Shown here: positions 12,175 through 31,370 of the stretch, one piece after another
How positions within the stretch are numbered: the stretch's first letter is position 1
Layout of the letters: each line of letters begins with the position of its first letter
From: an uncultured Thermotogaceae bacterium
Lineage (GTDB): Bacteria > Bipolaricaulota > Bipolaricaulia > Bipolaricaulales > Bipolaricaulaceae
Length of the DNA: 47,060 bases
Reading direction: 5' to 3'
Assembly (NCBI GenBank): GCA_964597525.1
Contig: CAZQXP010000001.1
Location: forward strand, 1 to 47,060
Program-made: the position numbers and the translations under genes
Notes under the pieces: generated by a model
Told to the model about the DNA's origin: nothing
Database searches by the model: none
Seen by the model: only the letters and a program-made list of their open reading frames with translations

Positions 12175-12184
12175 GGGAGGGGAT

Positions 12185-13423: not shown

Positions 13424-13424
13424 C

Positions 13425-13820
13425 ATGACCCTCAAGGAAATTGCCCGGGTGGTGGAGGCACAATTCCTCACCGGCGCAGATTTGGCCGATCGGGAGGTGC
13501 GCGCTGCCTTCGCCGCGGATCTCCTCTCCGACGTCCTCGCTATGGTGAGGGAGGAGGGCGTTCTCCTCATTACGGGAACGGTCACAGCCCAGGTGGTGCG
13601 GGTCGCGGAGGTCATGAATTTAGCTGGGGTTCTGTTCGTGCGCGGAAAACTTCCGGCGAAGGCCACGGTGGATTACGCTGCGTCCGCGGGGATCCCCCTC
13701 TTGGCCACGGAGCACCTCATGTACGAAACCTGCGGCCTTCTTTTTTCCCACGGGCTTCCTCCGGCCAAACGCAAGCGCCTGCCTGCGGAGCATGACGGTC
13801 CCCACCCCTCCCCGCCATAA
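13425..13820 (+). CDS. DRTGG domain protein
   Basis: ATG one nt after the apgM stop. MTLKEIARVVEAQFLTG...LLSDVLA...LLITGTVTAQVVRVAEVMNLAGVLFVRG matches the DRTGG domain layout. Confidence 0.7.
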   Translation: MTLKEIARVVEAQFLTGADLADREVRAAFAADLLSDVLAMVREEGVLLITGTVTAQVVRVAEVMNLAGVLFVRGKLPAKATVDYAASAGIPLLATEHLMYETCGLLFSHGLPPAKRKRLPAEHDGPHPSPP

Positions 13821-14268
13821 GGAAATCTTCACCGTGGTGGGCCTGGATCTGGAGCGGGCGGGCACGGTGTCCACGGAGGTGCAGCGGGTCCTGAGGAAGC
13901 TTGGGGTGGAGCCGGAGGTGGTGCGCCGGGCGGGGATTGTGTGCTTTGAGGGCGAGATGAACATGGTCCTTTACACCCCGGGGGGCCGCATTATCCTCCT
14001 CGTTTACGACGACCGAATCGAGCTCATCTTTTCCGACTTTGGGCCGGGTATTCCCGATGTGGAGCTTGCGCGGCAGCCTGGGTACTCCACGGCCCCGGAG
14101 TGGGCTAGAGAACCGGGGTTTGGCTCGGGAATGGGAATTCCCAATATGGAGGCCAATTCCGATCGCCTGGAAATCCGCTCCCGGGTGGGCGAGGGAACGG
14201 TGATCCGCGCCACGATCCTGAGGAGGCAAAGTGAAGCTGCGGGAGGTCGCGGAGAAACTGGGTCTTGA
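13792..14268 (+). CDS. HATPase-fold anti-sigma-factor-like Ser/Thr kinase (SpoIIAB/RsbW-like)
   Basis: 158 aa. DFGPGIPDVE...GFGSGMGIPNM...GTVIRATI corresponds to the G1/G2 ATP-lid boxes of GHKL ATPases. No HisKA domain. Confidence 0.65.
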   Translation: MTVPTPPRHKEIFTVVGLDLERAGTVSTEVQRVLRKLGVEPEVVRRAGIVCFEGEMNMVLYTPGGRIILLVYDDRIELIFSDFGPGIPDVELARQPGYSTAPEWAREPGFGSGMGIPNMEANSDRLEIRSRVGEGTVIRATILRRQSEAAGGRGETGS

Positions 14269-14563
14269 GTTTTTGGTGGCCGCGGCTCCGGAGGCCGAGG
14301 TGGAAGATGGTTACGTTTCCGACCTTCTTTCCGATGTCCTTGCGCATGCCCAACCCAAACAACTTTGGATCACCCATCAGCGTCACCTCAACGTGGTGGC
14401 CGTGGCCAAACTTCGGGAGCTAAGCGGGGTGGTATTCGCCCGGGGGATCCGGCCTGGACCGGAAGTGATTCGGAAGGCTCGCGAGGAGGGCCTGAACCTC
14501 CTTGTCTCCTCGGCCGACGCCTTCGAAACCGCGGGAAGGCTCCACCGCCTCCTTTTTCCATGA
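14231..14563 (+). CDS. DRTGG domain protein (second copy)
   Basis: GTG after GAGGAGG. VKLREVAEKLGLEFLV...YVSDLLSDVLAHA...VVAVAKLRELSGVVFARG parallels the protein encoded at 13425. Confidence 0.7.
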   Translation: MKLREVAEKLGLEFLVAAAPEAEVEDGYVSDLLSDVLAHAQPKQLWITHQRHLNVVAVAKLRELSGVVFARGIRPGPEVIRKAREEGLNLLVSSADAFETAGRLHRLLFP

Positions 14564-15325
14564 GGTGGTTTCGCGCCGACCTCCACATTCACTCCGCTCT
14601 CTCTCCCTGTGGGTCCTTGGCCATGTCCCCCCCGGCGGATCGTGGAGGAGGCGAGGAAAGCAGGGCTTTCTCTCATTGCTATCTGTGACCACAACGCCGG
14701 CGAAAACGGGGTTTACGTCCGCCGGCTCGCCCGCGATTCCCTCATAGTCCTCATGGGAATGGAAATCCAAACGAGCGAGGAGGTGGAGATCCTCGCCCTG
14801 TTTCCCGAGGAGGAGCCCTGCCTTGCCCTGCAGGAGGAGCTTTATGCCCTTCTTCCTCCGATTCCCAACGATCCGGAACTCTTTGGGGACCAGGTGGTCG
14901 TGGACGAAAACGAGGAGATCGTGCGCACCGTGGATAAGCTCCTCCTTTCGCCGGTGCCCCTTTCCCTGGAAGAGGTGATGAGGCGGGTGGAAGCCCGCGG
15001 AGGATTGGTGATCCCGGCCCATGTGGACCGCGTTCCCGGCGGGCTTTTGGGGGTCTTAGGCCTTTTCCCGCCGGGCGAATGGCCCGCGGTGGAAATCGCG
15101 CCGTGGACGGAGGTGGAGGAAGCCAAAAAGCGCTGGCCGGAGCTTCAGGGACGCCACCTTTTCCGTTCCTCCGATGCCCACTATCCCGAGGAGATTGGCC
15201 GTGCCTGGACGGAACTTTATCTTCGTGCCCCCACGTTTTCGGAACTTTTGCGAGCCATATTGGAGGGCGAGGGGCGTATAATCCGGCCCGGCCCACCCCT
15301 AAAGGAGGTCGGATGGAGCGCGTGA
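14560..15325 (+). pseudogene. PHP-domain phosphoesterase, reading frame broken by an apparent +1 frameshift in a C7 tract (14627..14633)
   Basis: Frame 1 from the ATG at 14560 gives MRWFRADLHIHSALSPCGSLAMSP (PHP motif I HxH) and terminates at 14688. Frame 2 continues RRIVEEARKAGLSLIAICDHNAG...PAHVDR...SSDAHYPEEIG to 15325. Removing one C restores a single ORF. Confidence 0.7.
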
Positions 15326-15768
15326 AAGAGCGGGTTTTGGAGCTTGTGCGCCCCTATGCGGGAAAGCCGACAGAACTTATCCAAGCCCTGCATCGCGTGC
15401 AGAACGCGTTGGGATACCTTCCCCGGGAAGCCCAGGAGATCGTGGCTGAGGCGTTGGGCGCCCCTCTTTCCCAGGTGCGGGGCGTGGTGACCTTTTACCA
15501 CTTTTTCCGCACCAAACCCGCGGGGAAGCACACAATCCGCGTGTGTTTAGGAACAGCTTGTCATGTGCGTGGTGGGGAACGCGTCCTTTCTAGCTTAAAG
15601 GAGGAGCTCGAGGTGGAAGTGGGCGAAACCTCCGCGGACGGGAAATTTACGTTGGAGGTCGCCCGGTGCCTGGGCTGCTGCGGACTTGCTCCGGTGATGA
15701 TGATCGACGAGGAGGTCTATGGCCGGCTGGACCCCAAAAAAGCCCGGGAGATCGTGCGGAAGTTCTGA
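15313..15768 (+). CDS. NuoE/HoxE/HydC-like [2Fe-2S] subunit (copy 1)
   Basis: AAGGAGG RBS. Four Cys in CLGTACHVRG...CLGCCGLAPVMMID, the thioredoxin-like 2Fe-2S motif of NuoE. Confidence 0.9.
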   Translation: MERVKERVLELVRPYAGKPTELIQALHRVQNALGYLPREAQEIVAEALGAPLSQVRGVVTFYHFFRTKPAGKHTIRVCLGTACHVRGGERVLSSLKEELEVEVGETSADGKFTLEVARCLGCCGLAPVMMIDEEVYGRLDPKKAREIVRKF

Positions 15769-16316
15769 TGGTGGAGGATTTAGCTTTTCACCTGGCAGAT
15801 TTGGTGGAAAACGCCGTGCGCGCCGGGGCCAAGAACGTGACGGTCGAGCTCATCCGGGAAGGCCGGGATTTCCTCATTCGCGTTTCCGATGATGGGGTGG
15901 GCATGGACGGGGAGACGAAGGTGCGGGCGGCGGACCCGTTTTTCACCACCAAACCCGGCCGGAGGATCGGTTTGGGGCTCGCGTTCTTGCGGCAAACCGC
16001 AGAAGAGCTCGGCGGGTCCTTCCGGCTGGAGTCCGCTTCCGGGAAAGGGACGCTTGTGGAAGCCCGCATCCCCTGGGATCATCCGGACCGGCCGCCTCTG
16101 GGCGATCTTCCCGGAACGCTCGTCCCCCTCATCGTTACTTCGTCCGTTGAATTCCGCCTTCTCTTCCGGGATGATCGGAGGGAGTGGACCCTAGATACCC
16201 AGGAGATCAAACGGGCCTTGGGAGAAGTGCCGCTTACAGATCCCGAGGTTCTTTCTTTTTTGGAGCGCGAGATCCGCGAGGGGCTTCGGGCTTTGGGCTG
16301 GAAGGAGGAGGGATGA
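15768..16316 (+). CDS. Histidine-kinase-like ATPase domain protein (no HisKA or sensor domain)
   Basis: TGATG junction with the upstream gene. N box LVENAVRAGA, G1 VSDDGVGMD, G2 GLGLAFLRQ, then GKGTLVEARIPW. Confidence 0.7.
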   Translation: MVEDLAFHLADLVENAVRAGAKNVTVELIREGRDFLIRVSDDGVGMDGETKVRAADPFFTTKPGRRIGLGLAFLRQTAEELGGSFRLESASGKGTLVEARIPWDHPDRPPLGDLPGTLVPLIVTSSVEFRLLFRDDRREWTLDTQEIKRALGEVPLTDPEVLSFLEREIREGLRALGWKEEG

Positions 16317-16681
16317 AGCTTGAGGAGCTCCGGAAGATCCGGGAGCGGGCGGAGGCGGAAATGAGGCTTCGGGCCGGCCAGGCCCGGGTGAAAATTGTGG
16401 TGGGAATGGGCACTTCCGGTATCGCCGCCGGCGCCCGCCAGGTCCTCCGCGCCATCCTCGATGAGGTGGCCCAGCGGAACCTCCGGGATGTCCTCGTCAC
16501 CCAAACCGGCGAAAAGGGCCTTTCCGCAAAAGAACCGCTCGTGGAGGTCCATGAACCCGGCAGGGTCACGATCTACGGCGACGTGGATGAGGCCACCGCC
16601 CGGAGGATCGTGGTGGAGCACGTCATCCACGGTCGAATCGTGGAGGATCACCTCGTGGAGCTGCGGGAGGTGCCGACGTGA
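16313..16681 (+). CDS. Thioredoxin-like [2Fe-2S] ferredoxin-fold protein (HydD-like) with no cysteines
   Basis: ATGA junction. VKIVVGMGTSGIAAGA...VTQTGEKGLSAKEPLVEV aligns with the N-terminal domain of the NuoF-like protein at 19750, but all four ligand Cys are replaced and the 122 aa contain no Cys. Confidence 0.7.
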   Translation: MKLEELRKIRERAEAEMRLRAGQARVKIVVGMGTSGIAAGARQVLRAILDEVAQRNLRDVLVTQTGEKGLSAKEPLVEVHEPGRVTIYGDVDEATARRIVVEHVIHGRIVEDHLVELREVPT

Positions 16682-17379
16682 TCACCCTCACCATCGACGG
16701 GATCAAGGTGCAGGCCGAGCCTGGGGAGACCATCCTTCAGGCGGCCAAGCGCGCGGGAATCCGTATCCCCACCCTCTGTTACCTAGAAGGACTTTCTCCG
16801 CGGGGAGCCTGCCGCCTCTGCCTGGTGGAGATACGGAACTGGGGTGGGAGATTGGTGCCTTCCTGCGCCACGCCCGCGCAAGAAGGTCTTGAGGTCGTGG
16901 CCAACTCCGAGCGGCTGCGCGAACTTCGCCGCACGATTCTCGAGATGATCTTTGCCGAGCGGAATCACATTTGCGCCTTCTGCGTCTCCAACGGGCATTG
17001 CGAGCTACAGAACCTCGCTATGGAGCTCGGGATGGATCACGTGCGGCTTCCTTACCGCTGGCCCCTTTTGCCCCTGGACCTCAGCCACGCCAAATACGGG
17101 ATTGACCACAACCGCTGTGTGCTTTGTGGCCGGTGTGTGCGGGCCTGCGCGGAGGTGGAGGGTGCCATGACCTGGGGCTTCTCCGGCCGGGGAATTTTCA
17201 CCCTGGTGGAGGCGGATTTGGGCGACCCCTGGGGGAAGTCCAAGACCTGTACAGGGTGCGGAAAATGCGTGCAGGCCTGTCCCACCGGCGCCCTCTTTGA
17301 GAAGGGCAAAGCCACGAGCGAGCAAGTAAAGCGGCCGGAGATCCTCGTGGAGGTCACAGAAAGGAGGCCCCGTGCCTAA
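16678..17379 (+). CDS. hoxU: HoxU/HydA-like Fe-S subunit (NuoG N-terminal type: [2Fe-2S] + [4Fe-4S] clusters)
   Basis: GTGA junction. LCYLEGLSPRGACRLCLVE...SC, then HICAFCVSNGHCELQ, CVLCGRCVRAC and CTGCGKCVQACP. Confidence 0.9.
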   Translation: MITLTIDGIKVQAEPGETILQAAKRAGIRIPTLCYLEGLSPRGACRLCLVEIRNWGGRLVPSCATPAQEGLEVVANSERLRELRRTILEMIFAERNHICAFCVSNGHCELQNLAMELGMDHVRLPYRWPLLPLDLSHAKYGIDHNRCVLCGRCVRACAEVEGAMTWGFSGRGIFTLVEADLGDPWGKSKTCTGCGKCVQACPTGALFEKGKATSEQVKRPEILVEVTERRPRA

Positions 17380-17899
17380 GCTTCGCGTGGCCACTGTGTG
17401 GTTTTCCGGGTGCTCCGGCTGCCACATGTCCTTTTTGGACCTGGACGAGCGCCTCTTGGAATTCGCCGAGCGCGCGGAGCTCGTGTTCTCCCCCATCGTG
17501 GACCTGAAGGAATTCCCGGAAGACGTGGATGTGGTGCTGATCGAGGGCGCGGTAGGGAACACCGAACACCTTCGGATGCTCTTGGAGATCCGCAAGAAAT
17601 CCAAAATCCTTGTGGCCTTTGGCGATTGTGCGGTGACTGGAAACGTGGCGAGCCTGCGCAACCCCCTTCCGCGCGAAGAGGTCCTGCACGCTGTTTATGG
17701 GAAAAACGATCCGCCGGGCTTGGAGGAAGGGGAGGTTCCCAAGTTCCTTCCTCAGGCGCTTCCCCTCCACGCGGTGGTTCCCGTGGATTATTTCCTGCCC
17801 GGGTGCCCTCCTTCGGCGGACAGGATCTGGACGTTCCTCCGGCCTGTCCTCCTTGGGCAGAAACCAGTCCTTTCCGGGCCGGATCTGAAATTTGGGTGA
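17372..17899 (+). CDS. hoxY: [NiFe] hydrogenase small subunit, short group-3 type
   Basis: 175 aa. [22 protein letters not shown] and LPGCPP proximal-cluster cysteines. No Tat signal. Confidence 0.9.
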
Positions 17900-17909
17900 A
17901 GGAGGCGGC

Positions 17910-19334
17910 GTGCAGAAATTGCATATCCCGGTGACGCGTATCGAGGGACACGGGCTTATCACCGTGCATTTGGATTCCGATGGCCGGGTAAGGGAGGCCC
18001 GCTTCCACGTCACAGAGGTGCGGGGCTTCGAGCGATTTTGCGTGGGCCGCATGCTCTGGGAGATGCCGGCCCTCACCGCCCGGATCTGTGGGATCTGCCC
18101 GGTTTCCCACCTCCTCTGCTCGGCCAAGGCCTGCGACGCGATTTTGGCCGTGCGCATCCCCCGGCCTGCAGAGAAGCTCCGCCGGCTCATGAACCTGGGG
18201 CAGATCGTGCAGTCCCACGCCCTTTCCTTTTTCCACCTTTCCTCGCCCGATCTTCTTTTGGGTTGGGATACAGACCCCGCAAAACGCCACATCTTTGGTG
18301 TGGCCGCTTTCGATCGGAAGCTCGCCCTCGATGGGATTCGCCTGCGGGCGTTCGGCCAGGAGATCATCGAGATCCTCGGTGGCAAGAGAATTCACCCAGC
18401 TTGGGCCGTTCCCGGTGGGGTGAATAACCCCTTGACCGAGGAAGGCCGGGACCGCATTGCCGCCAAACTCCCCGAGGCCATGCGCATTGCCCAAGATGCC
18501 CTCGCTCTTTACGAGAAGAACGTGGCCAAATGGGCCGAAGAGATCGAGCATTTCGGGAAATTCCCCAGCCTTTTCATGGCCCTCGTGGGCGAGGATGGCT
18601 CCTGGGAGCACTACAGCGGCCGCATCCGCTTCGTGGACGCGGAAAGAAGGATCGTGGCCGATGGCCTGGATCCCGCGCGGTACCAGGACTACATCGGTGA
18701 GGCGGTGGAAAGCTGGTCCTATTTGAAATTCCCGTACTACAAGCCCTACGGGTACCCGGAGGGAATGTACCGGGTGGGCCCGTTGGCCCGGCTCAACTGC
18801 TGTGAGCGCTTCGGGACAAAGCTTGCGGATGAGGCTCTTTCCCGTTTCCGGGCCGCAGCGGACGGAAAAGCGGTTACCGCCTCCTTCCACTACCACTGGG
18901 CCCGGCTCATCGAGATCCTGGGAGCTCTGGAAAAGATCGAGGAGCTCCTCTCTGACCCAGAGATCCTCTCCCCAAGAGTGCGGGCGGAAGCGGGGGTGAA
19001 CGAACTCGAGGGCGTGGGCGTTCACGAGGCCCCCCGGGGAACTCTTTTCCACCATTACCTCGTGGACGAAACCGGGGTGATCCAGAGGGTGAACCTGATC
19101 GTTTCCACGGGCCACAACAATTTGGCCATGAACCGCACGGTGGCTCAAATCGCCGAGCACTGGCTTTCCGGCCGGGAAATCACGGAGGGGCTCCTTAACC
19201 GCCTCGAGGGCGGGATCCGCGCCTACGATCCCTGTCTTTCCTGCTCGGTGCACGCGGTGGGAGAGATGCCCCTGCGGGTCCTTCTCCTTGGGCCGGATGG
19301 GGAGATCCTCGCGGAAAGGACGCGCGGCGCATGA
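17910..19334 (+). CDS. hoxH: [NiFe] hydrogenase large subunit, group-3 (bidirectional/NAD-linked) type
   Basis: GTG at 17910 after [24 protein letters not shown] and C-terminal DPCLSCSVH, followed by a ~26-residue tail that would be removed by the maturation protease. Confidence 0.95.
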
Positions 19335-19753
19335 TCCTCGTTATTGGCCTGGGACACCCCTTACGCAGGGATGACGGGGTAGGGCTTTGGATTGCCCAAA
19401 ACCTCGAGGAGCGGGAGGGCGTGAAGGTTTTGGGAGCTCAAGTCCTTTCGCCCGAGCTTTTACCCCAGATCCTCGCCGCAGATTTGGTGATTTTCGTGGA
19501 TGCCCGAAAGAGCGCGGGGCCGGTGCGCTGGGAACCTCTGAAGCCCGGGCCCTGCCCGCCCCTTTCCCACTCCATGACCCCTCAAGGCCTCATTTCCTGG
19601 GCAGCCAAGCTCTTCGGCACGGCTCCGGAGGCTTGGCTTGTAACCGTGCCCGCGCGGGACTTTTCCCTGGGGGAGGGGCTTTCGCCCCGCACGCGGCTGG
19701 CTGCGGAAGCGCTGCTCCGGCGCCTGCGGGCCTACCTCGGAGGTGGGGAATGA
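19331..19753 (+). CDS. hoxW: Hydrogenase maturation endopeptidase
   Basis: ATGA junction. [17 protein letters not shown] and VIFVDA motifs of the HycI/HoxW family. Confidence 0.85.
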
Positions 19754-21540
19754 GACGGCTCTCGGTCCTCCTTTGCTCCGGTTCGGCGTGCCAATCCGCG
19801 GGAGCCTTGGCCCTAAAACAGGCCCTTGTGGAAGCCCTCACCGCGGAGGGCCTTACCGAAGAGGTGCAAATTGTGGAAACCGGGTGCATGGGGCCCTGCG
19901 AGCTTGGGCCCATTCTCCTTGTCTATCCGGACGGCGTCTACTACGTGCGGGTGAAGCCCCGCGATGTTCAGGAAATCGTGCGGGAGCATTTCCTCAAAGG
20001 GAGGCCGGTGCGGCGGCTCCTTTGGACCGCGCCGGCGCCCGAGCCGCGCACGATCCCATTTTTCGCCCGCCAAAAGAAAGTTGTCCTCGAAAACTGCGGC
20101 CAGATCGATCCAGAAAAGATCGAGGAATACATCGCTGTGGGCGGCTATGAAGCCTTGGCCAAGGTCCTCACCCAAATGACCCCGGAGGAAGTGATTTCCG
20201 AAATCAGCCGCTCAGGCTTGCGGGGACGGGGTGGCGCAGGTTTTCCTACCGGCAAAAAATGGCAGGCCGTGCGGGAGGCCACGGGAAATCCGAAATACGT
20301 GATCTGCAACGGCGATGAAGGCGATCCCGGCGCCTTCATGGATCGGGCGATCCTCGAGGGCGATCCCCACAGCGTCCTTGAGGGCATGGCCATCGCCGCC
20401 TACGCCGTGGGCGCAGAAAAGGGCTACATCTACGTACGCGCGGAATACCCCTTAGCGGTAAAACGCCTGGAGGTAGCCATCGCGCAAGCCCGAAAGCTTG
20501 GGCTCCTTGGGCCAAGGATTTTTGACACGGACTTTTCCTTCGACGTGGAGCTGAGGATCGGCGCCGGGGCTTTTGTGTGCGGCGAGGAGACCGCCCTCAT
20601 CGCCTCCATTGAAGGGAAGCGGGGCGAGCCCAGGCCCCGTCCGCCTTATCCTGCGACCTCTGGCCTTTTTGGCAAACCCACCCTCATCAACAACGTGGAG
20701 ACCTTTGCCAATGTACGGCATATCATCCTCAAAGGGGCGGATTGGTTTTCCCAGATGGGTACAGCCACAAGCAAGGGCACAAAAGTTTTTGCTCTTGCGG
20801 GGCAGGTGAAAAACACCGGCCTTGTGGAAGTGCCCATGGGAATCACGCTGCGGGAGCTCATCTTCGAGGTGGGGGGAGGGGTTCCCGAGGGCCGGAAGTT
20901 TAAAGCTGTACAGATCGGCGGCCCCTCCGGCGGATGCCTTCCCGAAAGCCTCCTCGATGTGCCCATCGATTACGAGTCCCTGAAACAATACGGGGCCATC
21001 ATGGGCTCGGGCGGAGTGATCGTCCTCGATAATACTTCTTGCATGGTTAACGTAGCCAAGTTTTTCCTAGAGTTCACCGCGGATGAGTCCTGCGGAAAGT
21101 GCGTCCCTTGCCGGGTGGGATTGCGCATGATGCTCGGCATTTTGGAGCGGATCGTCCGGGGAGAAGGAACCGAAGAGGACCTCACCCGGTTGGAGGAACT
21201 AGGAAAACTCATCCAAGCGGCGTCTTTGTGTGGGCTTGGCCAAACGGCGCCCAATCCCGTTCTCTCCACCCTCCGCTACTTCCGGGAGGAGTACCTCGCC
21301 CATATCCGGGATAAGGCTTGTCCCGCCGGGGTTTGTCCGGATCTCATCCACTACGAGATCATTTCGGAGGCTTGTCGGGCCTGTGATCTTTGCCGGCGGG
21401 CTTGCCCCACGGGCGCGGCTCAAGGCACTCCCCGAAACCCGCCCTATCGCATCGTCCAAGAGCTTTGCATTCGCTGCGGCGCGTGCCTTGAGGCCTGCCC
21501 GTTCGGCGCGGTGGTGAAGATCCCGGGTCGAAAGGGGTGA
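19750..21540 (+). CDS. NuoF/HoxF/HydB-like FMN and NAD(P)H-binding subunit, full Bfu-type architecture (copy 1)
   Basis: ATGA junction. N-terminal thioredoxin-like domain with four Cys ([10 protein letters not shown]...[12 protein letters not shown]). [39 protein letters not shown]...LCGLGQT. C-terminal [12 protein letters not shown] + [12 protein letters not shown]. Confidence 0.9.
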
Positions 21541-22001
21541 CCGTGGACAAAAAGGCGATCCTTGAGAAATTTCCGCGCTCGCCCGATGTGCTTTTAGCCC
21601 TTTTGCACGAGCTTCAGCGGGCCAATCCCCGAAATTATTTGACGCCGGAGGACCTCGCCCTTGTCGCAGAATACCTGAACCTTCCCCTTTCCCGCGTGCG
21701 CGACGCCGTCACGTTCTACACCATGTTCAGCCTCCGCCCGCGCGGAAAACATGTGATCCGCGTGTGTGATTCCCCCAATTGCCACCTCTTTGGGGCCTGG
21801 TCCGTGGTGGAGCAGCTCAGAAAGCTTTTGGGGATTGAAGTAGGGGAAACCACGCCCGATGGCCTTTTCACCCTGGAGCTCACGAGCTGTCTTGGCGCGT
21901 GCGGGGTGGCTCCGGTGATGATGGTGGATGACGAGGTTTTTGGGAACCTCACGCCCGAGCGGGTGCGGGAGATTTTGGCCCGGCTGAAGGAGGAGGGATG
22001 A
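21537..22001 (+). CDS. NuoE/HoxE-like [2Fe-2S] subunit (copy 2)
   Basis: GTGA junction. [11 protein letters not shown]...[14 protein letters not shown] four-Cys motif. Confidence 0.85.
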
Positions 22002-23602
22002 GGCCCGCGCGCACCCATGTGCTTGTGGCCGTGGATGAGGAAGCCCGCCTGGCCGGGGTGGAGGGGGTTCTCGCGGCCCTCCGGGCGGCCCTCGATCGGT
22101 ACGGCCTTGCGGAGGAAGTCCAGGTCGTAGAAACCGGCACATTGGGCGTTTCCGGCCAAGGCGTGGTTTTAGCGGTTTATCCCGATGGCGTTTTCTATGG
22201 CCGCGTTCGTCCGGAGGACGTGGAGGAGATCGTGGAGGTTCATCTCCTAAAAGGCCGGCCGGTGGAGCGGTTGCGCCTTCCCACAGCTGCTCCGGTAGCC
22301 CGCCCTGGCGAAATCCTCGGCCGGCAGACCCGCGTGGTCCTCCGCAACGTAGGGGTGATCGATCCCGAAAATATCGAGGAATACATCGCCCAAGGCGGCT
22401 ACGAGGCCTTGGCCAAGGCTCTCTTTGAGATGAAGCCGGAGGAGGTGATCGAGGAGATCCGCCGTTCGGGGTTGCGCGGCCGCGGCGGCGCAGGTTTCCC
22501 CACCGGGCTCAAATGGGCCGCGGTCCGCTCCGCACCCGGCTCGGAAAAGTACGTGATCTGCAACGCCGATGAAGGCGAACCCGGAACCTTCAAGGACCGC
22601 CTCATCCTCGAGGGCGATCCTCACAGGATTTTGGAGGCCATGATCATCGCCGGCTACGCCGTGGGCGCAAAGCTCGGGATCATCTACGTCCGCGGCGAAT
22701 ATAGCCTATCTATCCGGCGTCTCACGAAGGCCATTGAGCAAGCCCGCGCGTATGGGCTTTTGGGAGAAAACATCTTGGAAAGTGGTTTTTCCTTCGATAT
22801 TGAGGTTCGGCCGGGCGCAGGCGCCTATGTGTGCGGCGAGGAAACGGCCCTCATCGAGTCCTTGGAGGGAAAGCGCGGCTGGCCCAGGATCCGCCCGCCT
22901 TATCCCGTCACCTACGGCCTCTGGGGGAAGCCCACGGTGGTGAACAACGTGGAAACCCTCGCGAACGTGCCGGATATCCTCCTCCGCGGAGCAAGCTGGT
23001 ACCGCACCTTGGGCACACCTACCTGCCCGGGGACGAAGGTCTACACGATTCTTGGGCACGTGCGTTTTCCTGGTTTGGTGGAAGTGGAGATGGGGACGCC
23101 CTTGCGCGTTCTTATCTACGAGCTTGGCGGTGGGATTCGGGATGGGAGGGCCCTCAAGGCCGTGCTCATCGGTGGAGCGGCTGGCGCTTTCCTCACCTCC
23201 CGGGATCTTGATGTGCGCCTGGATTTTGACTCCTTGGCGGGCAAAGCTGCGGTCCTCGGCTCCGGTGCGGTCCTCGTCATGGATGAGACGGCCTGCATGG
23301 TGGATATGCTCGGGAGCATCCTGCGTTTCTTTCGGCACGAATCCTGCGGGCAATGCGTTCCTTGCCGGGTGGGTACGGATCTTTTGGTGCGGATCTTGGA
23401 GGGGATCCGCCGGGGGATGGCCAACGAAGAAGTTCTCTCACGCATGGTGGAGATTGTGGAGACGATGAGGCTTTCCTCCCTTTGCCCTCTGGGGCAATCC
23501 CTGGCTTTGCCTGTGCGGTCGGCTTTGGAGAATTTCCGGGAGGAGTTCCTTGCCCATCTTGCGGCGCAACCCTGCCCCGTTTGTTCTGGGAGGCCTCAAT
23601 GA
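21998..23602 (+). CDS. NuoF/HoxF-like FMN and NAD(P)H-binding subunit, reduced architecture (copy 2)
   Basis: ATGA junction. [39 protein letters not shown]...LCPLGQS. The N-terminal thioredoxin-like domain is conserved in sequence but has no Cys. No C-terminal 2x[4Fe-4S] domain. Confidence 0.9.
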   Translation: MRPARTHVLVAVDEEARLAGVEGVLAALRAALDRYGLAEEVQVVETGTLGVSGQGVVLAVYPDGVFYGRVRPEDVEEIVEVHLLKGRPVERLRLPTAAPVARPGEILGRQTRVVLRNVGVIDPENIEEYIAQGGYEALAKALFEMKPEEVIEEIRRSGLRGRGGAGFPTGLKWAAVRSAPGSEKYVICNADEGEPGTFKDRLILEGDPHRILEAMIIAGYAVGAKLGIIYVRGEYSLSIRRLTKAIEQARAYGLLGENILESGFSFDIEVRPGAGAYVCGEETALIESLEGKRGWPRIRPPYPVTYGLWGKPTVVNNVETLANVPDILLRGASWYRTLGTPTCPGTKVYTILGHVRFPGLVEVEMGTPLRVLIYELGGGIRDGRALKAVLIGGAAGAFLTSRDLDVRLDFDSLAGKAAVLGSGAVLVMDETACMVDMLGSILRFFRHESCGQCVPCRVGTDLLVRILEGIRRGMANEEVLSRMVEIVETMRLSSLCPLGQSLALPVRSALENFREEFLAHLAAQPCPVCSGRPQ

Positions 23603-24927
23603 GGATCACCTTTGCCGGTGCCGCGGGAACCGTCACGGGCTCCTGCTTCTTCGTGGAAACCAAAGGCACGAAAATCCTTGTGGATTGCGGTCTTTTCCAG
23701 GGGCTTCCGGAGATGGAAGCCCGGAATTTCGAGCCCTTCCCTTTTGATCCCGCGGAAGTGGACTGGCTCATCCTCACCCATGGGCATCTGGATCACTTGG
23801 GACTTGTTCCGCGTCTAGTGCGGGAGGGCTTTCAGGGAAAAGGGATTTGTACGGTTCCCACGAGGGATATCGCCCAAGTCATGCTCATGGATGCGGCCCG
23901 CATCCAGGAAGAGGAGGAAGACGGAGCCCTCTACACCGTGGAGGACGCCCTCGATTCTCTGGATCGCCTCACCCATACCGTGGAGTACGGGGATGAGGTG
24001 GAGCTTGGGAGGGGGGTGCGCGCTAAATTCCACGATGCGGGGCACATCTTGGGCGCTGCGTTTGTGGAAATTCAAGCGGAGGGGAAGACCGTGGTCTTCT
24101 CCGGCGATCTGGGAAACCGCGGAAAACCATTGGTAGAGGATCCCTCCTATCCGCCCAAGGCGGACATCCTCATTTTGGAGTCCACATACGGCGATCGCCT
24201 CCATCCGCCCCTTGAGGAATCCGTGGAGGAGCTGCGGCGGGTGATCGTGGAGACCTTGAGGATGGGCGGGAACGTGGTGATCCCCTCCTTTGCCCTCGAG
24301 CGCACCCAGGAGGTTCTCTACATCCTCTTTCGCCTGTGGAAGGAGCGGAAAATTCCGCGCACGAAAATCTTCCTGGACTCACCGCTTGCGACCCAGGCCA
24401 CCAAGATTTTTGAGCGCTACACGGAGCGATTCCCCGAGCCGGCAAGGAAGCTTTTCCGTAAAAAGGAGGATCCCTTTGACTTCGAGCTTTTGGAGTACAC
24501 CCTGACAAAAGCCGCCTCGAAAAAGATCGCCGAGGAGGAAGGGGTGATCATCATTGCCGGATCAGGGATGTGCACCGGCGGCCGCATCCTCTACCACCTT
24601 CGGGCGAATCTCCCTCGGCCCGAGTCCTCCATTGTATTCGTCGGCTACCAAGCCGAAGGGACCTTGGGAAGGGCCATTTTGGATGGTGCCCCTGAGGTGG
24701 AGATTTTGGGGAGCATCGTGCCCGTGCGGGCGGGGATCTGGAGGATCGAGGGCCTTTCCGCCCACGCGGACCAGGAAATCCTTGTGGACTGGGCCCTCCA
24801 TGCCGATCCGGGCCAGGTGTTCCTCGTGCATGGTGAGCCCCAGGCCCTCGGGGCTTTGGCCGCGCGCCTCACCAGCCTCGGTTACTCCGTGCATATCCCG
24901 GCATGGCACGAGACGGTGGAGCTGTGA
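23599..24927 (+). CDS. Metallo-beta-lactamase fold, beta-CASP family RNA-processing nuclease-like protein
   Basis: ATGA junction. LILTHGHLDHLG (HxHxDH), FHDAGHILGAA, ESTYGDR, and C-terminal GLSAHAD...VHGE beta-CASP motifs. Confidence 0.85.
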   Translation: MRITFAGAAGTVTGSCFFVETKGTKILVDCGLFQGLPEMEARNFEPFPFDPAEVDWLILTHGHLDHLGLVPRLVREGFQGKGICTVPTRDIAQVMLMDAARIQEEEEDGALYTVEDALDSLDRLTHTVEYGDEVELGRGVRAKFHDAGHILGAAFVEIQAEGKTVVFSGDLGNRGKPLVEDPSYPPKADILILESTYGDRLHPPLEESVEELRRVIVETLRMGGNVVIPSFALERTQEVLYILFRLWKERKIPRTKIFLDSPLATQATKIFERYTERFPEPARKLFRKKEDPFDFELLEYTLTKAASKKIAEEEGVIIIAGSGMCTGGRILYHLRANLPRPESSIVFVGYQAEGTLGRAILDGAPEVEILGSIVPVRAGIWRIEGLSAHADQEILVDWALHADPGQVFLVHGEPQALGALAARLTSLGYSVHIPAWHETVEL

Positions 24928-25838
24928 AGGTGGCGGTCCTGGGAAGCCTCAATATGGACCTCGTCACCGTGGTGGAGCGCTTGCCCAGGCCAGGGGAAAC
25001 TGTTTTGGGACGAAATTTCGCCCGTTATCCAGGCGGAAAAGGCCTGAACCAGGCGGTGGCTGCAGCCCGCTTGGGCGCGGAGGTTGCCCTTTTTGGCCGT
25101 GTGGGGAACGACGCTTTCGGTGAGGAGCTTTTGGCCGTAGCCCGGGAAAACGGGGTGGACGTAAGCTATGTGGAAAAGGTTCCAGGACAGACGGGTATTT
25201 CCGCGATCCTTGTGGACCCGCAGGGCGAAAATATGATCGCCTACGCTCCCGGTGCTAATTACTCCGTGGATGAGGCCTACCTTGGCCGCGTTCTTCCTGA
25301 GCTTTCCGCTGCGGATGTCCTTCTTTTGCAGTTGGAGATCCCGCTTACCGCTGTGGTTGCCACCCTCAGCCGTCTTCCCCAGGATCGGCCTTTGGTCGTG
25401 CTCAACCCCTCTCCGGCACAAGATCTGAATGCTCTTCCTCTGCGCCGTGTGGATGTACTGGTCCCGAACGCCCAGGAATTTCAGATCCTCAGCGGTTGGT
25501 CAGGGAACCCCGAGGAGTTGGAAAGGATGGGGAGGGCCTTTTTGGCGCGAGGTATCAAGGCCCTGGTGGTCACCGCTGGGGCCGATGGCGCGTATTTGGT
25601 GGAGCCTGAAGGGCTCACACATTTTCCCGCATTCTCGGTGACGGCGGTGGATGTGACCGGCGCGGGCGATGCTTTCTGCGCCGCTTTGGCGGTGAAGTTG
25701 GGAAGCGGCCGCGGCCTCTATGAGGCCATCGGCTTCGCCAATGCTGCGGCCGCGCTTGCGACCACGAAAAAAGGGGCCGTCCCCAGCCTTCCTACCCTTG
25801 CGGAAGTTCAGTCCTTCCTTTCCCGCTTCGCCCAATAG
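24924..25838 (+). CDS. rbsK: Ribokinase (PfkB family)
   Basis: GTGA junction. VLGSLNMDL, GGKGLNQAVAAARLG, and DVTGAGDAF anion-hole/catalytic motif. Confidence 0.8.
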   Translation: MKVAVLGSLNMDLVTVVERLPRPGETVLGRNFARYPGGKGLNQAVAAARLGAEVALFGRVGNDAFGEELLAVARENGVDVSYVEKVPGQTGISAILVDPQGENMIAYAPGANYSVDEAYLGRVLPELSAADVLLLQLEIPLTAVVATLSRLPQDRPLVVLNPSPAQDLNALPLRRVDVLVPNAQEFQILSGWSGNPEELERMGRAFLARGIKALVVTAGADGAYLVEPEGLTHFPAFSVTAVDVTGAGDAFCAALAVKLGSGRGLYEAIGFANAAAALATTKKGAVPSLPTLAEVQSFLSRFAQ

Positions 25839-25921
25839 AGCTCTTGACAGTGCCCCGGATTTGTCGTATTTCCCATTCGTGCTCTTAGTGTGGAAGTGCT
25901 CCCGACCGTTTGGCCCGGCCA

Positions 25922-25955
25922 ACGCCCCGGCCGGGGCGTAACCTTTTTCTTTCCC
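25922..25955 (+). terminator. Rho-independent terminator candidate closing the long plus-strand operon
   Basis: Perfect 18-nt palindrome ACGCCCCGGCCGGGGCGT (25922..25939) followed by the T-rich tail AACCTTTTTCTTTCCCTTTT. Confidence 0.55.
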
Positions 25956-26017
25956 TTTTAGCGTTCCGTCGGTAGTCCCCTAGGCTTTTCTTCGGTTTTC
26001 CCTGAAAGGAGGTTTAA

Positions 26018-26911
26018 ATGTTGCGTTCCTCTTTGGTTTTGGAGGTTACGAGCGCCGTGCTTGGGGCGGCTCGGGAATTTCTAGCAAAAGAGGGCTTCGT
26101 TGAACTTCTTCCCGTGATCCTTGCGCCCGTCACGGATCCCTTGAGGACCACACCGGACCGGGCCATCGTTTCCGCATACGGCCAGGATTGGTACCTCACC
26201 CGCAGCATGATCTTCCATAAGCAGGCAGCTGTGCGGATTTGCCCAAAAATCTTCTCCTTTTCCCCTAACATTCGGTTGGAACCGGCTGAGCGGGCCAAAA
26301 CCGGCCGCCACCTTTTCGAGTTCGTCCAGCTGGATCTCGAGGTGCGAGAAGCCACAAGGGACGACGTGATGGATTTGGGCGAGCGCCTCCTCCTTTATGT
26401 CCTTTCCCAAATCCGGCGGGATTTCTCCCGGGAGCTAGCGAGGATTGGGCGGGAGCTTCCCGAGTATTCCCGGCCTTTCCCGCGCATCGCCTGGCATGAA
26501 GCCAAAGAAGCGTTCGGCCCGGATTTCGAGGAGCCTCTTTCCCGCCAAAGCAAAGGCCCCGTATGGATTGTGGATTTTCCCATCGATCAGCGGGAGTTTT
26601 ACGACCGGGAGGATCCGGAACGCCCGGGAATTTTGCGGGACATGGACCTCCTTTATCCGGAGGGGTTCGGCGAAGCCCTCTCCGGAGGCGAGCGGGAATA
26701 TCTCCCCGAACGCATTCGCCTGCGCATCCTCCGCCAAGGCCTTGATCCCGCAGCCTATACTGGGCTCATCGAGCTTGCGAAAGAAGGATTGCCGCCCTCC
26801 GCAGGCTTTGGCATCGGGGTAGAGAGGCTCGTGCGCTTTATCCTTGGGCTTTCCCATGTGGGCGAGGTTCGGCTTTTCCCGCGGGTTCCGGGCGTGCCGG
26901 CTATGCTTTAG
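26018..26911 (+). CDS. Class II aaRS catalytic-core paralogue of the AsnRS/AspRS type without an anticodon-binding domain (archaeal-type asparagine synthetase A-like)
   Basis: 297 aa. Strong RBS AAAGGAGG. Motif 2 FSPNIRLEPAERAKTGRHLFEFVQLDLEV. LSGGEREY. Motif 3 GFGIGVERLVRF. No OB-fold N-terminal domain. Confidence 0.7.
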   Translation: MLRSSLVLEVTSAVLGAAREFLAKEGFVELLPVILAPVTDPLRTTPDRAIVSAYGQDWYLTRSMIFHKQAAVRICPKIFSFSPNIRLEPAERAKTGRHLFEFVQLDLEVREATRDDVMDLGERLLLYVLSQIRRDFSRELARIGRELPEYSRPFPRIAWHEAKEAFGPDFEEPLSRQSKGPVWIVDFPIDQREFYDREDPERPGILRDMDLLYPEGFGEALSGGEREYLPERIRLRILRQGLDPAAYTGLIELAKEGLPPSAGFGIGVERLVRFILGLSHVGEVRLFPRVPGVPAML

Positions 26912-29271
26912 GCCAAGCGGGACCGCTTTTGGTCGTACATGCGGGCGTCGGCCTCCCGGAGGAGTTCTTCCGGCGTTTTCGGGCTTTGGGGGTGGTAGCT
27001 CGCGATCCCCGCGGAGAAATCGAGCACCAAGCCCAGATCCTGGGAGCGGCTCCAGGCCCGGAGTTTTTGGCGCAACCTTTTCACCGCTTCCTCCGCGCCG
27101 GCTTCGTCCGTCTCCGGAAGCACAAGGAGGAATTCATCTCCGCCGTAGCGGAAGACAAGGTCGCAAACGCGCAGGTTTTGAAGGAGGACTTTGGCCACAC
27201 CTTTCAGAACCTCATCGCCTTTGGCGTGTCCGAAGCGATTATTGACTTCCCGAAACCGATCGAGATCCAAAAGGGCCAAACTGAGGGAATGCCCATAGCG
27301 CTGGGCACGGCGGATTTCTCTTGTGAGCACCTCGAAGAGATACCGGCGGTTGTAAAGGTCGGTGAGGGGATCGCGCAGGCTCAAGTCGCGTAGGGCTTCT
27401 TTAGCCCGTAGCCCCTCCATGGTAACGGCCAAGAGCTGGGCCACCGCGAGGAGAAACTCCTCGTCCTCCTTGCGGAAACGGCCCAGCTCCACGCTTTCCA
27501 CATCCAAAACGCCCAAAAGTTCTGAACCAAAAAGGATGGGCACAGCCAATTCCGAACGGATCTCGGGATGGAGGGGAACATAGCGGGGATCTTCCCGGAC
27601 ATCGTCCACGCGCAGGCTTTGGCGCTCTCGGGCCACCCAGCCCACGAGCCCTGTTTCCTTGTTGAGACGCTGGCCCACAACGTAGAGGGGATCAGGAAGG
27701 GTGGAGTAAGCGGCAGCCACCACCAATTCCTCTCCTTGCGAGAGGAGAACCGCACCGAATTCGTAGCGCAACTCGCCACGGATGATCTCCAAGGCGCCAG
27801 GCAAAAGCTCTTCCACCGAGGAAAAGCGCGAAAGCTTATGGGCCAGACCGAATGCACCCCGAAGCCACTCCTTGTGCTTTTCTAGCTCCGCAAGCTCCGA
27901 AGCCCGTTCCACCGCCAAAGCGGCAAGGTCAGCAAAAACCTCAAGGGGAGCGAGCATTTCCAAGGTCGGCGCTTTGGGGGTCACCGGCTCATCCACGGAG
28001 ATATGCCCAATGATCCCCCGTTTTCCCCGCAATGGAATGAAGAGGAAATCGTCGGGGTGCCAACCCTCGGAGGCTTTGCGGCCGGGAAGGCCAATGCCCG
28101 GCCCCCAAGGGACTTGGTCGTAGGGGATGTAGTAGGAGCGGCTTATACGGAATTTTTCCTGAAACGCGAGCGGCCGGAGACGCGGAGGAAGCCCTCCTTG
28201 GGTTCGCAATTTTTCCTCTTCCTCAGGGGTGAGGCCTGCCGTAGCCATGGCCACGACGGGCCCCAAAAGGGGCGGATCGTGCCGAAGGTCGTAGAGGGAA
28301 ACCACAGCGCGCTGGAAGGGCGAATGGTCCACCACCGCTTGGGCAATGCGGCGCAGAATGGTGGGGATATCCTTCCCCGCAAGGATTTCCTGGGCCACAG
28401 AAAGCAGGCTTTCCCGCAGGCGCTCCGCCTCCGCTTCCCAAGTGACGTCCCGCACAACCCCTTGCACGGCGGGCCTGCCGGAAAGCTGCACCGCCCAAGC
28501 TTGGATCTCCACGGTCTTTACGCTGCCGCCCTTGGCCAGGGCGCGGAGGCGGTAGTGCCGTGGCGCGGGCTCTCCCCGTAACCTTGCCTCCAAATTCCGG
28601 CGAACCATTTCCCGATCTTCGGGATGAATGATTTCCCAATAGGGCCGGCCAAGGAGTTCCTCCTTTGGGTACCCGCTGATTTTCGTTATCCCCTCGTTCA
28701 CGAAAATGAAGCGACCGTCCTGGATGATGTAGACCCCGAAAAGCTCGTTTTCCACAAAACGGCGGTAGCGCTCCAAAAGCTCGTTCTTTTCTCTCTCCTC
28801 CAGGGTTCTCCCCAAAAAGAGGGCGAGGAAATGGGCGGAAAGCTCCAGGGTCAAGAGATCTTTGGAGCTGGGTTCCCAAGGGCGTTTGGCGGCCACCGCC
28901 AAAACCCCAAGCTCCCGGTCCTTGGCTAAAAGAGGAAGATAAACGGCGGTCTTGATTCCCTCGGCTTGGGTTTCCGGGTCGGAGAATTCCCGCCAAAGAA
29001 TGGGCCGGCGTTCTCCTAGAACTCGGCTAAAAATCGGATGGTCGCGGGGATTTTCCTTTGCCTTTTCCGCAAAAGTTTCCGAAAGTCCACGGTGGGCAAA
29101 AAGGGAAAAGCCTTGTTCCCCAAGGAGATAAACCGCGGCGGCATCCGCGCCCAAGAGGGGCAAAAGCTCGGCCAGCGCCTGATTACAGAAACTTTGGGGA
29201 TCCGGTGCGGAAATCCCCGCCTTGGCCAGCGCCGCCAAGATCTCGAGCTCCTTTTCCCTGGTGGATCCCAT
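26908..29271 (-). CDS. Multi-sensor diguanylate cyclase (GAF-PAS-GAF-GAF-GGDEF)
   Basis: C-terminal DPLTDLYNRRY...LDLDRFREVNNRFGHAKGD...RVCDLVFRYGGDEFLLVL: active GGDEF with an RxxD I-site at canonical spacing. The N-terminus has GAF- and PAS-like segments. Confidence 0.85.
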   Translation of the reverse strand: MGSTREKELEILAALAKAGISAPDPQSFCNQALAELLPLLGADAAAVYLLGEQGFSLFAHRGLSETFAEKAKENPRDHPIFSRVLGERRPILWREFSDPETQAEGIKTAVYLPLLAKDRELGVLAVAAKRPWEPSSKDLLTLELSAHFLALFLGRTLEEREKNELLERYRRFVENELFGVYIIQDGRFIFVNEGITKISGYPKEELLGRPYWEIIHPEDREMVRRNLEARLRGEPAPRHYRLRALAKGGSVKTVEIQAWAVQLSGRPAVQGVVRDVTWEAEAERLRESLLSVAQEILAGKDIPTILRRIAQAVVDHSPFQRAVVSLYDLRHDPPLLGPVVAMATAGLTPEEEEKLRTQGGLPPRLRPLAFQEKFRISRSYYIPYDQVPWGPGIGLPGRKASEGWHPDDFLFIPLRGKRGIIGHISVDEPVTPKAPTLEMLAPLEVFADLAALAVERASELAELEKHKEWLRGAFGLAHKLSRFSSVEELLPGALEIIRGELRYEFGAVLLSQGEELVVAAAYSTLPDPLYVVGQRLNKETGLVGWVARERQSLRVDDVREDPRYVPLHPEIRSELAVPILFGSELLGVLDVESVELGRFRKEDEEFLLAVAQLLAVTMEGLRAKEALRDLSLRDPLTDLYNRRYLFEVLTREIRRAQRYGHSLSLALLDLDRFREVNNRFGHAKGDEVLKGVAKVLLQNLRVCDLVFRYGGDEFLLVLPETDEAGAEEAVKRLRQKLRAWSRSQDLGLVLDFSAGIASYHPQSPKTPEELLREADARMYDQKRSRLA

Positions 29272-31342: not shown

Positions 31343-31370
31343 TGTTCACCTCCTCCCCGGGCAAGTTTTG

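Follow-up and report, generated by a model that had tools for sequence, protein, structure and literature searches.

Bifurcating hydrogenases allow fermenters and syntrophs to release H2 from NADH by spending reduced ferredoxin, and non-bifurcating NADH hydrogenases function only at very low H2; to our knowledge, the two have so far been treated as separate enzymes. The NiFe-HydABCSL of Acetomicrobium mobile (A. mobile), a NiFe-Bfu enzyme of solved structure (PDB 7T2R/7T30; Feng 2022), is encoded in an operon with a single B/C pair, and for no characterized non-bifurcating beta subunit has a common operon with a bifurcating-type pair been described. Here, we analyze a 47,060-nucleotide stretch of DNA (positions 1 to 47,060 of the forward strand of contig CAZQXP010000001.1, assembly GCA_964597525.1; hereafter the window), whose proteins have their nearest relatives in Candidatus Bipolaricaulota (= Acetothermia, OP1). 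In addition to a NuoE/NuoF pair of bifurcating type (copy 1; NuoE1 and NuoF1), its hydrogenase operon holds a second pair (copy 2; NuoE2 and NuoF2), which occupies exactly the interval, 21537-23602, given for it in a preliminary description of this DNA made from the letters alone. We regard it as close to certain that NuoE2 and NuoF2 are to be identified as an intact NADH-oxidizing, non-bifurcating module with HoxEF/FdsBG-like architecture, as predicted from sequence, and we put the probability that a single HoxUYH core carries either module alternately at about 0.5.

The A. mobile enzyme is the best solved-structure match for copy 1, copy 2, HoxH, and HoxU. Copy 1 matches A. mobile HydB (7t2r_B) over its full length with 882 bits and copy 2 matches it with 593 bits, whereas HoxH scores 546 bits against 7t2r_D of this bifurcating NiFe hydrogenase and 458 bits against the NAD-reducing hydrogenase of Hydrogenophilus. 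HoxU (233 aa) corresponds to the N-terminal 208 aa of the 692-aa A. mobile HydA, which adds an H-cluster-remnant domain. Both operons include HisK, HydD, and protease genes as accessory genes, and copy 1 keeps the B1-B5 ligands of A. mobile, except the semi-conserved Cys476, as well as the Bfu-specific residues. However, the gene order differs, and the window adds the second, non-bifurcating-type pair. The window is thus predicted to encode a NiFe-Bfu relative with a HoxU-sized A subunit and one extra pair of non-bifurcating type. The four genes of the two pairs are the following:

15313-15768, + strand: NuoE copy 1 (HydC/BfuC-like), [2Fe-2S] C1 site with four Cys kept (Pfam 2Fe-2S_thioredx, E 7e-52; the top NCBIfam model is HoxE, with a score under that model's cut-off)
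19750-21540, + strand: NuoF copy 1, bifurcating-type HydB/BfuB of 596 aa (Pfam 2Fe-2S_thioredx, Complex1_51K, SLBB, NADH_4Fe-4S, and two Fer4; 7t2r_B match; motifs)
21537-22001, + strand: NuoE copy 2 of 154 aa, [2Fe-2S] site with four Cys kept (full-length 2Fe-2S_thioredx/NuoE Pfam match, E 2e-48)
21998-23602, + strand: NuoF copy 2, non-bifurcating-type short flavoprotein of 534 aa (Pfam Complex1_51K, SLBB, and NADH_4Fe-4S, no Fer4; ATGA overlap with NuoE2)

The two NuoF proteins align along their whole common length, as had been claimed, and all the peptides quoted in support are present; BLASTP finds 302 of 523 residues identical (58%), with 0 gaps and E = 0. NuoE1 and NuoE2 share 48% identity over 139 aa (E 5e-47), and the similarity of both the NuoF and the NuoE proteins is far above chance. 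Residues A11, A16, T48, and S52 of NuoF2 align to the four N-terminal Cys of NuoF1, which bears out the reported replacement by Ala, Ala, Thr, and Ser, and in an alignment of NuoF2 relatives Cys lies outside the four commonest residues at those four columns. Both NuoE copies retain C-x4-C ... C-x3-C, likewise as reported. NuoF1 has two CxxCxxCxxxC motifs beyond the N3 region, whereas NuoF2 has no CxxCxxCxxxC motif and no Fer4 Pfam match and stops 5 residues past C529, at residue 534. The preliminary description was right that copy 2 lacks the 2x[4Fe-4S] domain, but the protein does not end straight after the N3 cluster, as it keeps C433, H520, C526, and C529. The N3 Cys of NuoF2 are intact (C450, C453, C456, and C496), the FMN loop and NADH motif are kept, and the FMN, NADH, and N3 ligands are invariant across 119 relatives.

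The four residues retained by NuoF2 align with Cys438, His525, Cys531, and Cys536 of A. mobile HydB, the B2 site, whose ligands were modeled as [2Fe-2S] by Feng 2022 and as zinc by Furlan 2022 and Xiao 2025. Among the 119 relatives, the site reads CHCC in 92 and is absent in the other 27, and this pattern of CHCC or nothing argues for a real metal site. Its interpretation as a Bfu-specific relic was rejected, because C-H-C is kept also in NuoFs of formate dehydrogenase type. NuoF2 is predicted to carry FMN, the N3/B1 [4Fe-4S] cluster, a cluster-less thioredoxin-like N-domain, and probably a Cys3His metal site, and NuoE2 a [2Fe-2S] cluster. The AlphaFold2 model of NuoF2 has a mean pLDDT of 83.5, with a beta-alpha-beta N-domain that is folded without Cys (pLDDT 80-96), and its fold matches HydB, NfnB, and StnB, as well as C. 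necator FdsB over the full length. In Bipolaricaulota genomes, both flavoprotein pairs diverge at about the rate of the hydrogenase subunits, suggesting that both are maintained by selection. Together, the invariant ligands, the divergence rates, and the confident model point to a functional rather than a decaying copy 2. Against curated complex I models, NuoF2 scores 426.5 bits with NF010120 (cut-off 389), which explains the public 'NuoF' names, and 517.5 bits with TIGR01959, which falls short of the 558.65 cut-off. Genes for Nuo membrane or connecting subunits are absent from the entire 47-kb window, and NuoF2 bears an extra N-domain of ~100 residues compared with complex I NuoF (about 420-450 aa, without the thioredoxin-like N-domain).

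Four discriminators between the beta subunits of bifurcating and non-bifurcating enzymes have been published (Losey 2020), and the same A, M, and F residues were named Bfu-specific by Schut 2022. The two copies compare with them as follows:

NADH motif: Ala/Glu and Met in bifurcating, Thr/Ser and Lys/Ser/Ala in non-bifurcating enzymes; A and M in copy 1 (PGAFMDR), T and K in copy 2 (PGTFKDR)
Residue near FMN: Phe in bifurcating, Tyr in non-bifurcating enzymes; F in copy 1 (GAGAF), Y in copy 2 (GAGAY)
SLBB domain: GGPSG in bifurcating, none in non-bifurcating enzymes; GGPSG in copy 1, GGAAG in copy 2
Extra FeS domains: present in bifurcating, absent in non-bifurcating enzymes; present in copy 1, absent in copy 2

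T197, K199, Y277, and GGAAG of copy 2 are invariant in 119/119 relatives. In A. mobile HydB, the counterparts of the Bfu-specific residues are A202, M204, and the Phe of GAGAF; as this Phe is printed as F182 and our own count on the 7T2R_B sequence gives 282, we used the motif and not the number. NuoF1 has the four N-terminal Cys, the N3 Cys, the B2 C/H/C/C, two ferredoxin motifs, GAFM, GAGAF, and GGPSG, so that NuoF1 and NuoE1 appear to supply the complete BfuBC core, comprising B1-B5 ligands, C1, and the Bfu-specific residues. Copy 2 also stands in the context of a non-bifurcating beta subunit, with NuoE2 directly upstream and HoxU, HoxY, and HoxH in the operon. All four discriminators agree with the earlier proposal, and by all published sequence criteria copy 1 is classed as bifurcating-type and copy 2 as non-bifurcating-type. 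Where enzymes with the non-bifurcating signature have been characterized, they are NADH-dependent and ferredoxin-independent (S. aciditrophicus HydAB and S. wolfei Hyd1ABC, with Losey 2020, and the Caecomyces Hyd-NuoEF complex); the Caecomyces complex does not use NADPH.

Structural work, including Xiao 2025, has electrons of Bfu enzymes reach ferredoxin via C1 and the two C-terminal clusters, B3/B4. Xiao 2025 showed that B5 and B2 may both contain Zn in an active Bfu enzyme, so that loss of the N-terminal cluster is less diagnostic than loss of the B3/B4 domain. The missing C-terminal domain is the decisive loss in copy 2, and the N-terminal cluster loss says less; of the extra N- and C-terminal HydB clusters that the preliminary description had named as markers of bifurcation, the C-terminal domain stands and the N-terminal one carries less weight. 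Provision of the missing domains in trans was also considered and was rejected for the window, because the HydD-like neighbor is Cys-less and none of the adjacent genes encodes a small 2x[4Fe-4S] ferredoxin.

The acidic CGEETAL motif is kept in both NuoF copies. In complex I, a Glu in this motif disfavors the 2'-phosphate. The nucleotide-site motif of copy 2, CNADEGEPGTFKDR, is invariant in the family (119/119) and is the one usual in NADH enzymes, shared by complex I, formate dehydrogenases, and hydrogenases of non-bifurcating type (Losey 2020). The motif difference between the copies, first read as possible NADH versus NADPH coupling, is the published bifurcating/non-bifurcating signature and not a signal of nucleotide preference.

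Copy 2 had been described as a paralogue in which the cofactor domains thought to be needed for bifurcation are missing. Among the NuoF genes of the fetched loci, copy 2 has its 24 top matches in other genomes and phyla, where they are short non-bifurcating forms, and all of these rank ahead of its own neighbor, and the 31 top matches of copy 1 are bifurcating-type without exception. In a neighbor-joining tree of 113 core domains, all bifurcating-type sequences fall in one clade and copy 2 in a separate short-form clade. The best-match ranking and the tree rule out a recent duplication followed by domain loss, and copy 2 belongs instead to an old and widespread family of short flavoproteins.

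To follow the pair in other genomes, we used a pattern scan with one genome per species and took the best 80 of >600 pattern matches by similarity. The loci, which extend +-10 kb, were classified by our own ORF calling, BLAST, and a motif script, and 33 short-family genes with >=5 kb upstream and >=3 kb downstream were counted. A bifurcating-type NuoF lies nearby on the same strand for 24/33 of them (a GltD fusion in 9 of these 24), so that the co-occurrence for which a survey had been suggested is common in this sample, and a NiFe or FeFe hydrogenase lies nearby for 30/33. Related genomes thus show copy 2 with hydrogenases and not with another enzyme class, although a few relatives adjoin FdhA-like genes (L014, L054, and L025). 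In Aminicenantes, Cloacimonadota, Caldisericota, Elusimicrobia, Anaerolineae, PVC-group bacteria, Armatimonadetes, Clostridia, and other groups, the genes usually run E1, HisK, HydD, bifurcating F, E2, and short F, followed either by HydA or by a NuoG-like subunit together with HoxY and HoxH. In most cases outside Bipolaricaulota, the short NuoF is immediately 5' of HydA or the NuoG-like subunit. Of the examined Bipolaricaulota loci with enough contig on the upstream side, 9/9 have the tandem layout; three gene orders occur, and in one of them a NuoF-GltD fusion is the bifurcating-type subunit. These loci include the window, L001, L008-L010, L040, L088, and L089, and the whole arrangement is conserved in Ca. 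Bipolaricaulis sibiricus and isolate J31.

Two variants are informative about what each pair can do. At L006, L013, L016, L045, and L049, there are two complete sets, E2-Fs-HydA and E1-Fbf-HydA (Fs and Fbf, short and bifurcating NuoF), indicating that each pair type can own a core. In Anaerolineae, L043 and L032 have E-Fs-NuoG-like A-HoxY-HoxH without a bifurcating pair, and L043 is closely related to the tandem locus L036 (HoxH 82.5% and short F 81% identical). Such short-pair-only operons with closely related hydrogenases imply that the short pair is a genuine hydrogenase diaphorase; judging from these relatives, it is the short pair that constantly accompanies the hydrogenase, with the bifurcating pair as an optional addition.

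The survey also turned up two unusual forms of NuoF. NuoFs of ~554 aa with bifurcating motifs but no C-terminal ferredoxin domain occur in L007 (7869-9533), L020 (7937-9604), L021 (7907-9592), and L031 (7875-9536); they carry GAFM or GAYM, GAGAF, GGPSG, and the four N-terminal Cys, and each is directly 5' of a short non-bifurcating pair and an FeFe HydA. In many phyla, a bifurcating-type NuoF fused to a GltD/NfnB-like NADPH domain (~1015 aa) stands beside the short pair (L005, L006, L015, L022, L025, L026, L033, L035, L041, L045, L049, and L088). In the Bipolaricaulis locus L088, the fusion is directly 5' of HoxU-HoxY-HoxH, which hints at NADP-linked variants of the operon.

Within the window (G+C 58-63%), the gene set was drawn from Pfam and NCBIfam scans of the + strand. 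The remaining features of the operon are the following:

13792-14268, + strand: HATPase-only histidine-kinase-like protein (HATPase_c_2), a putative regulator heading the cluster (Pfam; position kept in Bipolaricaulota and in tandem operons of other phyla)
14609-15325, + strand: PHP-domain protein, an accessory gene typical of Bfu hydrogenase operons (Pfam PHP_C; synteny conserved)
15768-16316, + strand: HisK-like HATPase_c protein, whose start overlaps the NuoE1 stop (TGATG) (Pfam HATPase_c)
16313-16681, + strand: HydD-like small thioredoxin-like protein, cluster Cys lost (weak NCBIfam 2Fe-2S ferredoxin match; alignment of 50 orthologues)
16678-17379, + strand: HoxU (BfuA equivalent), [2Fe-2S], His-type [4Fe-4S], and 2x[4Fe-4S] (Pfam; NCBIfam HoxU equivalog 340.8 bits, cut-off 333)
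17372-17899, + strand: NiFe hydrogenase small subunit, HoxY/HydS (Pfam Oxidored_q6)
17892-19334, + strand: NiFe hydrogenase large subunit, HoxH/HydL (Pfam NiFeSe_Hases)
19331-19753, + strand: hydrogenase maturation protease, HoxW-like (NCBIfam TIGR00072 63.3 bits, cut-off 47.45)
23599-24927, + strand: beta-CASP/metallo-beta-lactamase, RNase J-like (Pfam Beta-Casp, Lactamase_B, RMMBL; ATGA junction with NuoF2)
24903-25838, + strand: PfkB-family sugar kinase, the final gene of the unit (Pfam PfkB, E 3e-67; conserved in L001 and L008-L010)
25922-25939, + strand: terminator-like hairpin of 7 pairs (6 G-C) with a T-rich tail, the probable end of the operon (consensus match only)

The junctions that were read show gene overlaps of 1-4 bases (TGATG, ATGA, and GTGA), and F1, E2, F2, and the following gene are chained by start/stop overlaps. 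The ATG of NuoF copy 1 (19750) overlaps the stop of the upstream protease gene (ATGA) and is preceded by GGAGGTG, and the start of NuoE copy 2 overlaps or abuts the stop of the HydB-like NuoF1; its true start may be the GTG at 21543. The hairpin is the strongest terminator-like site on the + strand in 11000-27000. Judged by these junctions, the E2/F2 pair belongs to one translationally coupled operon with F1, HoxU, HoxY, HoxH, and the maturation protease. The mechanical ORF of NuoF copy 1 has a TTG start at 19387 and 717 aa, but its real start is the ATG at 19750; the first 121 codons of that ORF (19387-19749) overlap the protease gene and look non-coding, and automated callers may over-extend this protein.

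The beta-CASP gene is part of the operon without an evident redox role. This non-redox tail (beta-CASP and PfkB, 23599-25838) is kept in several Bipolaricaulota (L001, L008-L010, and L089), while isolate J31 retains the beta-CASP gene and not PfkB. At the other end, the two HATPase-only HisK-like proteins and the PHP protein at the operon head are conserved across phyla, where they are often joined by DRTGG proteins and a HydS-like sensory hydrogenase; their A. mobile homologues are absent from the purified enzyme. In the alignment of 50 orthologues, the HydD-like protein reads GMGTSG / GEKGLSAKEP in the window and GMGTCG / GCMGLCEKEP in Anaerolineae and Firmicutes, that is, Ser/Glu/Ser where the latter carry cluster Cys. 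Cluster loss has thus affected two thioredoxin-like domains encoded in this operon, that of HydD and the N-domain of NuoF2.

Copy 2 can also be compared with characterized non-bifurcating systems. It shares all marks of the beta subunits of characterized non-bifurcating hydrogenases (T/K, Tyr, no GGPSG, and no C-terminal ferredoxin domain). However, these are either about 407 aa without the N-domain or NuoE-NuoF fusions, they fall in other clades of the tree, and they partner FeFe HydA, whereas the operon of copy 2 has NiFe HoxUYH. The domain plan of copy 2, a thioredoxin-like N-domain, a NuoF core, and an end after the helical bundle, is that of FdsB/FdsG (C. necator 6VW7 and R. capsulatus 6TGA), which belong to a NAD+-dependent formate dehydrogenase and are non-bifurcating and NADH-linked. 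Copy 2 matches C. necator FdsB (6VW7_B) with 395 bits over residues 8-525 and, by fold, with a TM score of 0.75 on target. Unlike Fds systems, the window has no molybdopterin formate dehydrogenase alpha subunit, and formate-dehydrogenase-linked NuoFs fall in clades of the neighbor-joining tree other than that of copy 2. With the bidirectional Hox enzyme HoxEFUYH (group 3d), the operon shares HoxY, HoxH, the protease, and a HoxU that passes the equivalog model, and the Anaerolineae relatives E-Fs-A-Y-H reproduce the hoxEFUYH order. Canonical Hox has one diaphorase, in contrast to the two pairs of the window.

As copy 2 has no B3/B4 ferredoxin domain, it would have no route to ferredoxin, and the only electron transfer open to E2/F2 would link NAD(H) to the FeS chain in some NuoG-like subunit. 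Within the cluster, HoxU is the sole NuoG-like docking subunit, which makes two enzyme forms on one catalytic core the most likely arrangement. E1-F1-HoxUYH would then be of Bfu type, with H2 coupled to both NAD+ and ferredoxin, and E2-F2-HoxUYH of simple Hox type, bringing H2 into equilibrium with NAD(H) alone, and the two forms would let the cell work at differing H2 pressures and redox states. Alternative docking is, we infer, the most economical reading of the many tandem operons with a single core. The gene inventory of Ca. B. anaerobius fits weakly with HoxU as the only available partner: the closed-genome paper (Hao 2018) names only Mbh, Hdr-Mvh, Hox, and 'HymAB' among hydrogenases, and nowhere in the main text does it use the terms formate dehydrogenase, Rnf, or Nfn. 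No partner enzyme other than hydrogenase is found in the 47-kb window, the rest of which encodes, among other things, transporters, a GGDEF protein, tRNA synthetases, and enzymes of polyamine synthesis.

Several points weigh against one core shared by two modules. The binding of E2/F2 to HoxU, the exclusion between modules, and their regulation are what we infer from gene content and sequence. A second pair is not required by the NiFe-Bfu enzyme purified from A. mobile (Feng 2022), and the survey is a sample of the best matches, not a census. The Dictyoglomus pair (62% identical) is an isolated two-gene unit (L003/L004, Dictyoglomus thermophilum-type contigs, 9543-11632), with no hydrogenase, formate dehydrogenase, or second pair within 10 kb, and the Caldisericia pair in L005 follows a NuoF-GltD fusion without a nearby core subunit; these cases show that an adjacent hydrogenase is not indispensable to the pair. 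Outside the visible 47 kb, the genome may also encode a different NuoG-like partner, for instance a formate dehydrogenase or HydA.

The last possibility leads to a free-standing role, in which E2/F2 would be an NADH dehydrogenase (diaphorase) for an acceptor or enzyme encoded elsewhere, riding in the operon. The orphan Dictyoglomus unit and the Caldisericia pair would suit this role, as would the non-redox genes that follow E2/F2, and there are known cases of free NuoEF with NADH:dye activity, such as the Caecomyces NuoEF purified alone. That NuoEF, however, does not reduce ferredoxin, and NuoF-type modules have no known way of reducing soluble carriers without a NuoG-like partner. Since 30/33 family members adjoin hydrogenase genes and the short NuoF usually lies just 5' of HydA or a NuoG-like subunit outside Bipolaricaulota, we consider a free diaphorase improbable. 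Slightly better placed, but still unlikely, is joint work of both pairs in one hetero-oligomeric complex, such as a HoxUYH dimer with E1/F1 on one unit and E2/F2 on the other. The A. mobile NiFe-HydABCSL is indeed a dimer of pentamers joined via HydB and HydL, and the protomers of T. maritima HydABC are electronically linked via a HydA cluster. Moreover, co-transcription and tight F1-E2-F2 translational coupling suggest near-equal synthesis of both pairs, and the bifurcating and short clades look roughly co-inherited across phyla. Yet no structure is known to combine B subunits of two kinds, the A. mobile pentamers have their cofactors >40 A apart, so that each pentamer is independent, and short-pair-only loci together with the bifurcating-pair-only A. 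mobile indicate that neither pair needs the other.

The two remaining explanations concern the nature of copy 2 itself. That the second pair provides NADPH coupling and copy 1 NADH coupling was suggested by their differing nucleotide-site motifs, and NADP chemistry does occur in the operon family, where several related operons have NADPH-type GltD domains fused to a bifurcating NuoF. But where NADPH is implied, it comes from that GltD domain on the bifurcating-type subunit, and a NuoF with the same features as copy 2 (Caecomyces) is strictly NADH-specific; given also the family-wide NADH-enzyme motif of copy 2 and CGEETAL in both copies, NADPH coupling is very improbable. Equally hard to credit is a non-catalytic E2/F2 that reads NADH/NAD+ as a redox sensor or regulatory subunit and controls the Bfu enzyme with the HisK-like, PHP, and DRTGG proteins. 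The operon family is rich in conserved regulator-like genes (HATPase-only, PHP, DRTGG, and HydS-like sensors), and the N-domains of the short NuoF and of HydD lack clusters. However, the FMN loop, NADH site, N3 cluster, and NuoE [2Fe-2S] are strictly conserved, and in short-pair-only hydrogenase operons the short pair must be the catalytic diaphorase.

Downstream of the operon, 26018-26911 (+) encodes a 297-aa class II aminoacyl-tRNA-synthetase-like protein consisting of the catalytic core only, possibly EpmA/GenX-like, and convergent with it, at 26908-29271 (-), is a 787-aa GAF-PAS-GAF-GGDEF diguanylate cyclase. A polyamine cluster follows at 29332-34211 (-), with arginase-family, spermidine synthase, deoxyhypusine-synthase-like, pyruvoyl arginine decarboxylase, and BpsA-type branched-chain polyamine synthase genes, and adjoins the hydrogenase operon in Ca. 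B. sibiricus (L001) too. Polyamine clusters of this kind are typical of thermophiles.

In the open-access literature we found no description of tandem bifurcating and non-bifurcating pairs in one hydrogenase operon, although absence from it is not proof, and an in-text search of the Bfu classification paper showed none. Nearest are the 'Hox EFUHY + HymAB' of Hao 2018, in which a Bipolaricaulis cluster was annotated, with no further remark, as Hox E,F,U,H,Y and 'a putative [Fe] hydrogenase (HymAB)', and a Chloroflexi genome with 'two NuoEF operons' to which no function was assigned. The E2/F2 module itself is of a known kind, and the tandem layout is apparently undescribed.

Beyond alternative docking on one core, it is possible, and we propose it only tentatively, that a regulated switch operates, in which the conserved HisK-like, PHP, DRTGG, and HydS-type proteins choose the module on one core (HoxUYH here, HydA elsewhere), and that such switches are widespread in uncultured anaerobes. 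If alternation between the two modules is true, cells could shift between energy-saving and ferredoxin-spending modes with H2 pressure, with no second hydrogenase made. Annotation would also need to change, as pipelines now say 'NuoF' or 'HymAB' and classify the enzyme by its catalytic subunit alone. Finally, the tandem operons would offer natural, matched bifurcating and non-bifurcating B subunits for the same partner (58% identical here, gapless), ideal for locating the residues that create bifurcation in the Bfu family.

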